A program made the position numbers and the translations under genes. A stretch of DNA of 5,451 nucleotides from a virus. Below the pieces are notes generated by a model that saw only the letters and a program-made list of their open reading frames with translations, did not search any database and was not told the DNA's origin. Of this stretch, positions 2,592 to 5,451 are shown piece by piece. The first letter of the stretch is position 1, and each line of letters begins with the position of its first letter. Where the stretch lies: the IMG/VR virus record IMGVR_UViG_3300045988_015028, positions 1-5,451 of that record; one strand, written 5' to 3'.

Positions 2592-3392
2592 ATGTCATTT
2601 CTTGGTTCTGCTCTTGGAGCTGTTACTGGTGGCGTTTCATCTATCATTGGTGGTGCTCTCTCTAACTCTGCTGCTCGCCATGCTGCAACGGTAGCTAATC
2701 AGCGTAATGTATATAATTATCAGCATCGTTATCAATGGGCTATGGATGATATGCAAAAGGCTGGACTTAATCCTATGCTTGCTGCTACGCAAGGTATTGG
2801 TGGTTCTGTTAATGGTGCTTCTGCCCTCTCCTCTAATTATAATCTTGGTGAAGGTGTTACTGCTGGTATGTCTGCTCAGGCTGCTGGTAGCTCTGCTAAG
2901 GCTGCTCAGAAGCAGGCAAATACTGCAGAAGCTGTTGGCCAGGGTACTGTTAGAAAACTTGATTCTGACGTTGCTTTAAATGCTGCTTCTGCAAAGAATT
3001 TTGAAGCTGAAACTGCTGGCAAAACTATTGCTAATAAGTTAGCGCAGGATACATATAAAGATAATGTTGCTTTGTATAAACAAAATTTAGCTAATGCTCA
3101 AAAGCAAGGTGCTCTTATTGACGAACAGACAAAAAATGCTTTTTACCAGCGTGATGTCGTTATGCCAGCTCAAGCTAATATGATGATTGCTCAAGGAAAC
3201 TCTGCTAATTCTTCTGCTGCATATAGTAATCAGCTTGCTCTTCAATCTAAAGAAGCTACTGACCGTGCTTCTATGCAAAATGAGATGCGTGGTAAATATG
3301 GCTTTGATACTGATTCTTCTATTGCTGGTGCTATTGGTGGTTCTTTCAGTAAGGCTCTTGATAAAGCTAAGAAAACTTTTTTTGGAAGGTGA
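2592..3392 (+). CDS. VP2: Minor capsid / DNA pilot protein, VP2-like.
   Basis: 266-aa ORF directly after VP1, with AAGGAG at 2577-2582. It has a Gly/Ser/Ala-rich N-terminus, followed by YQWAMDDMQKAGLNPMLA, which resembles the (D/E)(L/M)(K/Q).AGLNP(I/M)LA block typical of gokushovirus VP2. The rest is Ala/Gln-rich and probably helical. Position and composition both fit VP2. Confidence 0.75.
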   Translation: MSFLGSALGAVTGGVSSIIGGALSNSAARHAATVANQRNVYNYQHRYQWAMDDMQKAGLNPMLAATQGIGGSVNGASALSSNYNLGEGVTAGMSAQAAGSSAKAAQKQANTAEAVGQGTVRKLDSDVALNAASAKNFEAETAGKTIANKLAQDTYKDNVALYKQNLANAQKQGALIDEQTKNAFYQRDVVMPAQANMMIAQGNSANSSAAYSNQLALQSKEATDRASMQNEMRGKYGFDTDSSIAGAIGGSFSKALDKAKKTFFGR

Positions 3393-3820: not shown

Positions 3821-3837
3821 CAGAAAGTGTGTGTATT

Positions 3838-4782
3838 ATGACTTGCCTTAACCCGATGTTTGCTAAACGCTCTGCTGTGCCTAACGCTAACGGCAAGTAT
3901 GAGCTATCAAATTTTGTTGCTTATCGTCAGCTGTCCGGTAAATCTCTTGAATATGCCAAGGCTGAATTAGCTAATAATTATGCTGTTGTCGTTCCGTGCG
4001 GTCAATGCTTAGGCTGCCGTTTAGACAAGGCTAATGACTGGGCTATTCGTTGCGTCCATGAAGCAAAATTACATCTTCATAACTGCTTCATCACGCTGAC
4101 CTATAATGATGATTGCCTTCCAGCAGACGGCTCTTTACATCGCGACCACTTACAACTTTTTTTTAAGAGATTACGTCGCTATTTAGATTATCATGACAAT
4201 TCTAAGATACGTTTTTTGTGCTGCGGTGAGTATGGCGATCTTAATTGTAGGCCGCATTATCATATTCTGTGTTTTGGTTGGTTTCCTGCTGATGTTCGGA
4301 AAGTATCGGCGTTAACGGCTGGTTATAATCTTTTTCGTTCTCCCACGTTGGAGCGACTTTGGCCGTATGGTTTCAATACTGTTGGAGCTATCACTTTTGA
4401 ATCTGCCCGCTATGTTGCTAAATATTCGCTTAAAAAGCAGACCGGTAAGAATGCCTGCATGTATGACGCTTTAGGCATTGCCCCGGAGTTTGTCGGCAGT
4501 TCTTTAAAGCCTGGTATAGGTGCTGATTATTTTGGCCTTTATTCTGAGGATATTTTTAAATTAGGCTTTGTTACAATTAACGGAGTAAAATATAAAATAC
4601 CTCGCTATTATCAAACATTATTTGAGCGCAGCAACCCCGTTTGGTATAGTATATACAAGCAGCAAAAGGCCGAAAATGCAAAGGCTGCCGTTATCGATTG
4701 TAAAAGGTTGGAAGCTAAGGAAAAGATTATGAAGCACCGGCAGGAACAATTTGAGCGTGATTTTGCTATTTTAGGCTTGTAA
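3838..4782 (+). CDS. VP4: Rolling-circle replication initiation protein VP4 (HUH endonuclease, phiX174 gene A superfamily).
   Basis: Motif I is FITLTY (nt 4087-4104). Motif II, the HUH motif, is HYHIL (nt 4255-4269). Motif III is the two-tyrosine YVAKY..KK (nt 4411-4425 onward). There is also an N-terminal PCGQCLGCR cysteine cluster typical of microvirus Rep proteins. I prefer the ATG at 3838 (MTCLNP...) as the start. The ORF track opens at an upstream GTG at 3829, which cannot be excluded. Neither start has a strong SD. Confidence 0.93.
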   Translation: MTCLNPMFAKRSAVPNANGKYELSNFVAYRQLSGKSLEYAKAELANNYAVVVPCGQCLGCRLDKANDWAIRCVHEAKLHLHNCFITLTYNDDCLPADGSLHRDHLQLFFKRLRRYLDYHDNSKIRFLCCGEYGDLNCRPHYHILCFGWFPADVRKVSALTAGYNLFRSPTLERLWPYGFNTVGAITFESARYVAKYSLKKQTGKNACMYDALGIAPEFVGSSLKPGIGADYFGLYSEDIFKLGFVTINGVKYKIPRYYQTLFERSNPVWYSIYKQQKAENAKAAVIDCKRLEAKEKIMKHRQEQFERDFAILGL

Positions 4783-4810
4783 AAAGTTGTAAAAAGTTGC
4801 AAAAAGTTGT
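4776..4810. repeat. Three and a half tandem 10-nt units, (c/g)ttg(t/c)aaaaa. They give three A5 tracts phased at 10 bp, forming an UP-element-like or intrinsically bent region upstream of the promoter.
   Basis: The sequence reads cttgtaaaaa gttgtaaaaa gttgcaaaaa gttgt(tgaca). The A5 tracts are at 4781-4785, 4791-4795 and 4801-4805. The first unit overlaps the VP4 stop codon at 4780-4782. Confidence 0.8.
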
Positions 4811-4838
4811 TGACATTTGCTATTTCACATATTATAAT
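4810..4838 (+). promoter_or_regulatory. Perfect consensus sigma70 promoter: TTGACA, 17 nt, TATAAT.
   Basis: TTGACA at 4810-4815, a spacer of exactly 17 nt (4816-4832), and TATAAT at 4833-4838. Phased A-tracts lie at roughly -40 to -65. A GAGG Shine-Dalgarno (4852-4855) and the ATG at 4864 lie just downstream of the expected transcription start, near 4845. Confidence 0.8.
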
Positions 4839-4863
4839 ATATATAGAAAGTGAGGTAAGCAAT

Positions 4864-5124
4864 ATGTTAAAAGATTACTATTATTCTTCATTCGTCGGTA
4901 CTAAATGTACTTTGAAGCCTTCTACCATTAAGGCCGTTAATGATATTCTTCTTATGCAAGCCTGCTTTAGCACCTATGGTCGTTATCGTGCTTATTGTAA
5001 GCGCGTGCAATCTTCCGGTAAATGCTTTCTTTGGCATGGTTTCTATCATGTGGTTACTGACGAGTGTAAAAACAGGCTTTTATGTATTTTAAAAGCTGAT
5101 TCTTTAAATGATGAGGTGGAATAA
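4864..5124 (+). CDS. Hypothetical 86-aa Cys/His-rich protein. It is an orphan ORF between VP4 and the VP5-like gene.
   Basis: The ATG at 4864 has GAGG at 4852-4855, 8 nt upstream. The longer TTG-initiated version in the ORF track (4807) would begin upstream of the predicted promoter -10, so it is disfavoured. The protein has 6 Cys and contains CKRVQSSGKCFLWHGFYH (C-x8-C-x3-H-x3-H). Its stop overlaps the next start (TAATG at 5122-5126). I recognise no family. Confidence 0.55.
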   Translation: MLKDYYYSSFVGTKCTLKPSTIKAVNDILLMQACFSTYGRYRAYCKRVQSSGKCFLWHGFYHVVTDECKNRLLCILKADSLNDEVE

Positions 5125-5405
5125 TGAAACTTTATTGTATTTATGACCGTAAAGGCGAGCTTATGAACCCGCCTTTCGTGCAACAAAATAATGCTATGGC
5201 TATCCGTCAATTTCAAATCATGGTTAATCAGCCTTCTACTCCGGAGCGTTCCAATATTATCCATGATTATCATGAGGACTTCGTTCTTATGTATCTCGGT
5301 GAATTTAATGACAAAACGTGTGAATTTTCCCCACAAAATCCCACTTTGCTTTTGTCTACCGCCACAGAACTATTGACTTCCCCACCCCAGACTGCTAAAA
5401 TTTAG
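5124..5405 (+). CDS. Small non-structural protein, gokushovirus VP5-like (tentative).
   Basis: 93-aa ORF with GAGGTG at 5113-5118 upstream. Its start overlaps the preceding stop by 1 nt. MKLYCIYDRKGELMNPPF...AMAIRQF...HEDFVLMYLGEFNDKTCEF resembles the pattern I recall for microvirus VP5-type proteins (MK.F.(I/V)YD.K.....PF......A.R.F .... EDY.L...G.FD...G). This is a memory-based call. Its position after VP4 fits VP5. Confidence 0.6.
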   Translation: MKLYCIYDRKGELMNPPFVQQNNAMAIRQFQIMVNQPSTPERSNIIHDYHEDFVLMYLGEFNDKTCEFSPQNPTLLLSTATELLTSPPQTAKI

Positions 5406-5451
5406 TTGTAAGGTACGCTTGCCCGCTTTCTCATTCTGTGGTATAATCAAC
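5397..5451. repeat. Terminal redundancy, right copy of nt 1-55. Most likely an assembly overlap of a circular contig rather than a biological repeat.
   Basis: Exact 55-nt identity with the window start. Microviridae genomes are circular ssDNA. An overlap of exactly 55 nt matches a commonly used de Bruijn k-mer size. Confidence 0.95.

Follow-up and report, generated by a model that had tools for sequence, protein, structure and literature searches.

Gokushoviruses rank with the most abundant phages of the gut, yet for the most part little is known of their hosts or of the signals that govern their transcription. In phiX174, a few constitutive promoters on one strand (pA, pB and pD), combined with hairpin terminators, are read by the host housekeeping polymerase. 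At bacterial rRNA and tRNA P1-type promoters such as E. coli rrnB P1, a near-consensus core is joined to an upstream (UP) element, an A-rich stretch from -40 to -60 that the RNA polymerase alpha subunit contacts through its C-terminal domain (alpha-CTD). The UP consensus of Estrem et al. reportedly consists of a proximal subsite AAAAAARNR and a distal subsite AWWWWWTTTTT, Aiyar, Gourse and Ross reportedly found in 1998 that upstream A-tracts act through the alpha subunit, and in 1995 Helmann reportedly described sigmaA promoters of B. subtilis whose A-tracts lie near -43, -54 and -65. Here we analyze the 5,451-nt stretch of DNA that is IMG/VR virus record IMGVR_UViG_3300045988_015028 (hereafter the window), a complete circular gokushovirus-like microvirus with a unit of 5396 nt and an exact 55-nt overlap of its ends (IMG/VR class: direct terminal repeats). 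Our subject is the element at 4777-4863, which lies between VP4, the replication initiator gene, and orfX, an 86-amino-acid (aa) open reading frame (ORF) that is followed by a VP5-like gene. By comparison with relatives and with bacterial and large-phage promoters, this element is likely to be a strong and probably constitutive promoter, carrying UP-element units, for the host housekeeping polymerase on the double-stranded replicative form.

The features of the element and of the two genes behind it are as follows.

4777-4809, + strand: three 10-nt units TTGTAAAAAG with the core AAAAGTTG, read as a UP-element-like array
4810-4815, + strand: -35 hexamer TTGACA; of 19 clade genomes, 17 match it 6/6 with a spacing of 17 nt
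4816-4832, + strand: spacer of 17 nt, here without the TG of an extended -10
4833-4838, + strand: -10 hexamer TATAAT, invariant in the 15-genome alignment and in all 19 tabulated clade genomes
4845-4863, + strand: leader of 19 nt, with a start at A4845 or G4846 predicted from promoter geometry
4864-5124, + strand: orfX (86 aa), which opens the unit and belongs to a hypervariable family of small proteins
5124-5405, + strand: VP5-like gene (PF20577 at 6e-21; phrog_1670)

Probable core promoter and its conservation among relatives

A preliminary description of this DNA had placed a sigma70 promoter here, and its promoter, repeat and flank coordinates all proved correct on re-check. The 12/12 consensus match at 17-nt spacing that it claimed is indeed present, and TTGACA-17-TATAAT is the sole such site on both strands of the window, the next best reaching 10/12. 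When the unit genome of 5396 nt was shuffled 2000 times with its dinucleotides preserved, a 12/12 site arose by chance in 0.5% of the shuffles. Downstream, an AT-rich discriminator (ATATATA) leads to a Shine-Dalgarno (SD) sequence GTGAGGT at 4850-4856 and to the orfX ATG at 4864, 25 nt from the -10 hexamer, much as had been described, and this 25-nt distance is the same in all 19 clade genomes.

To evaluate conservation, we gathered 15 IMG/VR relatives whose VP5 is 88-99% identical, and added as further relatives L030, a 5.5-kb contig binned in a metagenome-assembled genome (MAG) labelled 'Clostridiales', together with ENA and Logan contigs that include one from a Hadza gut sample. Across a 15-genome alignment, mean pairwise column identity was 1.00 in the -10 hexamer, 0.83 in the -35 hexamer and 0.94-0.96 in the SD region, 0.71 in the spacer, a value equal to that of VP4 third codon positions (0.71), and 0.43 in orfX past codon 5. 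Columns 4840-4844 are variable (0.49-0.66) and columns 4845-4850 invariant, such that the resumption of conservation at 4845 fits a predicted transcript start at 4845 or 4846. The extended form TGnTATAAT is found in 18 of the 19 clade genomes, the window being the sole exception. The same promoter is present in L030 and in L057-L064, and a diverged form occurs in the nearest GenBank genomes, KT264820 and KT264821, whose VP5 is 55% and 50-55% identical by alignment; directly past VP4 these have TTGCAA-17-TGTTATAAT and TTGATA-17-TGCTATAAT, respectively, each with A/T-tract repeats of its own. Because both hexamers and the 17-nt spacing are kept in relatives while the spacer drifts, 4810-4838 very probably behaves as a real sigma70/sigmaA-type promoter. 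The preliminary description had left it to related phages to show whether the hexamers are conserved, and they are, at the counts listed above.

An AT-rich intergenic region could also hold such a match fortuitously, or the element could serve the single-stranded DNA (ssDNA) as a packaging signal or complementary-strand origin. As a single strand, 4760-4870 does fold with z = -1.75, but the fold is not significant, with 9 of 200 shuffles as good, and the region has no Rfam match. The rarity of 12/12 sites among the shuffles and the restriction of conservation to the hexamers, with a drifting spacer between them, likewise speak against this explanation, which we regard as very remote.

Repeat units and their counterparts at bacterial and large-phage promoters

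Directly upstream of the core, Tandem Repeats Finder reported a period of 10, the unit TTGTAAAAAG and 3.4 copies at 4777-4810. Each unit is composed of an 8-nt conserved core AAAAGTTG and two variable positions, and a fourth unit, GTTGTTGACA, includes the -35 hexamer. The A5 tracts (4781-4785, 4791-4795 and 4801-4805) recur with a period of exactly 10 nt, and, taking +1 as 4845, are centered at -62, -52 and -42, as previously described. Within 4786-4807, A+T amounts to 16/22, with A5 tracts at -44..-40 and -54..-50. The element was also correctly said to begin on the VP4 stop codon, a TAA (4780-4782) contained in the first unit. Column identity is 0.92 in the repeat units, where VP4 third codon positions reach 0.71 (p = 8.5e-6). 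Their GTTG core is as conserved as the A-tract, which suggests a defined subsite rather than curvature by itself.

An exact IMG/VR search with AAAAGTTGNNAAAAGTTGTTGACA-N17-TATAAT revealed eleven microvirus contigs and, from the same metagenome, one 46-kb contig, and on the 46-kb contig the pattern stands directly 5' of an 18-tRNA array that ends in a tRNA-Lys next to an integrase gene. Such a contig is probably a prophage-host junction, with the tRNA array on the host flank. On L069 (IMGVR_UViG_3300045988_122277), the 18 tRNA genes at 9361-11547 are arranged in tandem as three sets, each Pro-Gly-Arg-His-Lys with Leu or Gln, and the array-terminal tRNA-Lys adjoins a 417-aa integrase-like gene at 7986-9239.

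With the tRNA-promoter region as query, we then searched 400 bacterial genomes of the class of the L030 MAG. Many genomes gave matches of 27-39 nt at 90-97% identity that were confined to the AAAAAAAGTTGAAAAAAGTTGTTGACA segment and often lay close to contig ends. Fifteen of the 16 places fetched have a pair of A-tract/GT-rich units (in most cases A5-7 and then GTTG, GTTT or GTG) adjoining TTGAC(A/T), with a -10-like hexamer 16-17 nt further on that matches TATAAT at 4-6 of 6 positions. Within 500 nt 3' of the fetched places we found 16S rRNA (5), 23S rRNA (1), tRNA (1) and the leader of ribosomal protein L21 (2). With ≤1 mismatch allowed, a strict 24-mer was matched 18 times, in 10 of the 401 genomes, as opposed to 1 match for the reversed control, including three exact copies in one genome and five near-exact copies in another. 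In the reciprocal search, in which the whole phage genome was compared to five such bacteria, 7 of 9 matches, the 4 best among them, cover 4782-4818, and no prophage or CRISPR (clustered regularly interspaced short palindromic repeats) match to the phage was found in those five bacterial genomes.

Homologues of orfX also occur in two protein clusters (P0036 and P0071) on contigs of 84, 85 and 52 kb, representing two lineages that we take to be large double-stranded DNA (dsDNA) phages because they carry DpdA/QueC, RNA-ligase and phosphoesterase families, the only genes that mark them as phage; they had no DNA match in the phage collection. On L056/L065 (the 84-kb Logan contig from SRR8316613) and on L066/L067, each of these large phages has some 35 small genes arrayed on a single strand, most of them behind a near-perfect TTGACA-17-TGnTATAAT and many then followed by a hairpin terminator, with DpdA/QueC (7-deazaguanine DNA modification), RNA-ligase and ArdA genes close by. 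The orfX homologue sits within this small-gene array with ArdA a few genes distant, behind its own TTGACA-17-TGnTATAAT and an A-rich upstream run, and its leader is identical to that of the window at 18 of 21 positions, with the same first codons. In total, the arrays hold 36 sites of 11-12/12 in about 32 kb. A tract of at least four A lies ≤12 nt from the -35 in 28 of these 36 sites (background 14%, p = 2e-17), at least two tracts lie within 35 nt in 19 of 36 (background 8%), and one site, L056:13901, has three phased units as in the window. Perfect-consensus promoters are thus common among phages of this niche, and the earlier remark that natural promoters rarely show such a match fails here. 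Since VP4 and VP5 are absent from these large phages, which nevertheless share the motif, it is taken to belong to the host polymerase and not to a protein of the microvirus.

Direct repeats at helical spacing, with GTTG conserved like the A-tract, might equally be operators or iterons for a phage protein such as VP5, VP4/Rep or orfX; KT264821 has AAGTTACC repeats at the same place, and the PHROGs label of VP5 is 'DNA binding protein'. We consider this improbable, as A-tract-GTTG units adjoin TTGACA both at the rRNA and tRNA promoters of bacteria and at early promoters of large phages that have neither VP4 nor VP5, as AAAAGTTG occurs nowhere on the + strand of the genome outside the array, and as the GTTGYAA copies by the second promoter (see below) are not kept as a motif. 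The best reading is instead that the repeats reproduce the upstream element of Clostridia-class stable-RNA promoters, that is, a host-type UP element. Two related candidates were tried and rejected. A dispersed GTTGYAA operator (8 copies as compared to 2 expected) has a post-VP5 copy that is not conserved and a copy at 65-71 that lies in a hairpin. As to an origin or iteron, rejected as the main reading, AAGTTG is not enriched, and the motif is also found in bacteria and Rep-less phages.

Several observations weigh against a strong promoter with host-type UP-element units, and some of them at the same time favor a second alternative, in which only the core promoter works and the repeats are the neutral slippage product of a -35-proximal A-rich unit. 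Most genomes carry 3 repeat units, with 2 in L061 and 4 in L009, L011 and L014, such that the exact array is not essential. Length changes are always of whole units, as expected of replication slippage, and kept phasing is therefore not in itself selection. Units are degraded in L013 and in L062-L064, where the proximal A-tract is broken (AAGAA). We nonetheless find the slippage alternative unlikely, given that the units are above synonymous-site conservation while the adjacent spacer is not, that a two-unit array persists in KT264821 at a VP5 identity of 55%, and that the same array stands at bacterial stable-RNA and large-phage promoters. Also on the opposing side, L003 lacks the -35 through a 20-nt (two-unit) deletion at about 1110-1165, keeping the extended -10 TGTTATAAT and the A-tracts, and a microhomology deletion has stripped L004 (IMGVR_UViG_3300045988_121362) of the promoter and of most of orfX; if these genomes are viable, the promoter is a dispensable accessory. 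The window fits the E. coli UP consensus only in part (proximal gcaaaaagt at ~5-6 of 8 specified positions and a poor distal match of ~6/11, counted by eye), and the Clostridia class label rests on the label of one MAG. On the other side, predicted wedge-model curvature of 4776-4815 is at the 98.8-99.7th genome percentile, though not at the maximum. For the proposal that A-tract units boost transcription, this leaves standing the part that concerns constraint and the match to rRNA and tRNA upstream elements, and leaves the bent-DNA part with that model percentile. Lastly, consensus promoters can be escape-limited, so a 12/12 match does not entail the 'strongest transcription unit' of the preliminary description, a phrase that, like 'dedicated to two ORFs', we treat as an inference only. 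Even so, the operator, the neutral slippage array and the ssDNA structure are each less likely than the UP-element promoter.

Under the UP-element promoter reading, the housekeeping RNA polymerase of the host would read the core TTGACA-17-TATAAT from the double-stranded replicative form, and the three phased A5-GTTG units would be tandem copies of a host UP-element subsite that lie on one helix face at about -42, -52 and -62. The alpha-CTDs would presumably bind these units, and A-tract curvature may aid wrapping. The phage would thereby copy the strongest promoter type of its host, namely the type found at rRNA and tRNA operons, and at those for ribosomal proteins, in the class to which the Clostridiales-labelled MAG belongs. 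Transcription would start at 4845 or 4846 and pass through a 19-nt leader with a strong SD into orfX and the closely coupled VP5 gene. The start, the alpha-CTD contact, the strength and the transcript end are all inferred.

Transcript extent and the proposed promoter-orfX cassette

Every recognizable gene of the window is on the + strand. The remaining features, several of which bear on how far transcripts from the promoter at 4810-4838 (P1) may extend, are as follows.

5419-5447 (= 23-51 through the terminal overlap), + strand: second promoter (P2), TTGCCC-17-TGgTATAAT, without an A-tract array, kept in relatives
86-125, + strand: first terminator-like hairpin, at 86-116, and T-run past the unit on the circle, with compensatory stem changes among relatives
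274-717, + strand: VP3, scaffold
928-2574, + strand: VP1, capsid
2592-3392, + strand: VP2, pilot
between VP2 and VP4 in the gene list, + strand: 89-aa ORF
3829-4782, + strand: VP4, replication initiator (PF23343; phrog_942)
4780-4782, + strand: VP4 stop codon TAA, within the first repeat unit

Transcripts from P1 and P2 would probably end at the hairpin at 86-125, and read-through from P1 into VP3 and VP1 is possible. A further alternative takes P1 to be the main promoter of the whole circle, with leaky terminators that pass transcripts on to VP3, VP1, VP2 and VP4 in a manner like that of phiX174. All genes are on one strand, which has only two good promoters, there is no terminator between VP5 and the second promoter, and the hairpin at 86-125 is the first to be followed by a T-run. 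On the other hand, this hairpin is conserved with compensatory changes and a long T-run, and L004, which is without P1, keeps the second promoter, suggesting that the latter can serve the backbone genes. A whole-circle role for P1 is therefore conceivable but doubtful.

Within 23-147, identical to 5419-5451 plus 56-147, we observed the second promoter, then within about 35 nt a small hairpin (GTTGTaataccACAAC), the terminator-like hairpin and a second hairpin, with no ORF before 274. Another structure, at 756-803 between VP3 and VP1, is an inverted repeat that is perfect over 19 bp and has a loop of 10 nt. Overlapping the promoter region itself, an antisense ORF of 83 aa (4611-4862, - strand) covers the promoter and has a poor coding appearance, and an in-frame TTG extension of orfX (4807-5124, 105 aa) was rejected as its frame is broken by 10- and 20-nt indels in relatives.

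Evaluating orfX further, a profile search revealed 98 protein clusters at E ≤ 0.001, nearly all of them on contigs of about 5.5 kb, which contradicts its earlier description as an orphan ORF. The coupling to the VP5-like gene that had been proposed is consistent with a stop/start overlap, TAATG, at 5122-5126. The family is hypervariable, with identities of 21-30% possible between phages whose VP5 is ≥88% identical and with mosaic C-terminal extensions. No Pfam or PHROG family and no tblastn match in GenBank phages was found for orfX, and its structure model, a small alpha/beta fold with a predicted local distance difference test (pLDDT) score of 79, had no fold match in PDB or BFVD. In L005, L006, L016 and P0013-P0018, orfX cores of differing subfamilies have in common a C-terminal extension (DLHFKAFIDYTSNELARDGV..., ~30 aa), a pattern that suggests modular shuffling within the gene. 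At about 1395-1500 of L004, the first repeat unit (AAAAG) runs at a GTTGT microhomology into the 3' portion of an orfX of the L012 type, and VP5 then follows VP4.

In most other gokushoviruses examined, VP4 adjoins or overlaps VP5 and no promoter separates the two genes; the promoter and orfX are therefore taken to be a clade-specific insertion. The literature searched describes no gokushovirus promoter between the Rep and VP5 genes. The nearest relative found within an isolate-genome contig is an integrated gokushovirus prophage (L031) on a 797-kb contig of Phascolarctobacterium faecium DSM 14760, with a VP1 that is 53% identical, overlapping VP4 and VP5, and no promoter between the two.

The promoter, leader and orfX inserted in this clade appear to behave together as an exchangeable early-expression cassette. 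Going beyond this, we tentatively suggest that the cassette may be mobile between ssDNA microviruses and large dsDNA phages of a shared Clostridia-class gut host, that its UP element may be borrowed from the rRNA promoters of this host, that orfX may be a fast-evolving host-takeover or counter-defence factor, in view of the small-gene arrays in which it occurs and which also hold ArdA, and that the array of 2-4 units may be a dial by which slippage tunes promoter strength. Transfer between microviruses and large phages could have gone either way.

Comparison with known systems

As a promoter, the element is ordinary, in that a consensus core with a UP element is of a known kind. What it provides is a concrete, testable transcription start for a gokushovirus, a clue to the host through an upstream element that matches Clostridia-class rRNA-promoter architecture, and an example of an expression cassette common to ssDNA and dsDNA phages. 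If the mobile-cassette suggestion above is true, promoter architecture could also assign hosts to the many gut gokushoviruses that presently lack one.

Among phage systems, phiX174 belongs to another subfamily and differs in promoter position. Morons and PeSL-type cassettes are, like the locus, promoter-led accessory genes between backbone genes that are adjacent in relatives, with presence/absence (as in L004, which is without the cassette), allele swapping and occurrence in unrelated phages; the window differs from them in having no terminator of its own after orfX and in the coupling of orfX to a core gene, VP5, that is also served by the promoter. [quoted passage not shown] The large phages with orfX homologues have arrays of this type, with ArdA nearby, whereas the window has a single cassette in a microvirus and not an array.

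Phased A-tract curved-DNA promoters likewise have A-tracts one helical turn apart 5' of the -35, and in the window the non-A part of the unit (GTTG) is conserved as well. For a Bacillus phage promoter, McAllister and Achberger (1989), as related in PMC9825172, reportedly found the phase of curved DNA relative to the -35 to be important. With Clostridia-class rRNA promoters the window shares A-tract/GT-rich units adjoining TTGAC(A/T), in the same register, and with rRNA and tRNA P1-type promoters such as rrnB P1 it shares a near-consensus core behind an A-rich element at -40 to -60. It departs from the P1 type in being a 5.4-kb ssDNA phage in which such a promoter stands before small protein genes, with three units and not two and with an AT-rich discriminator.

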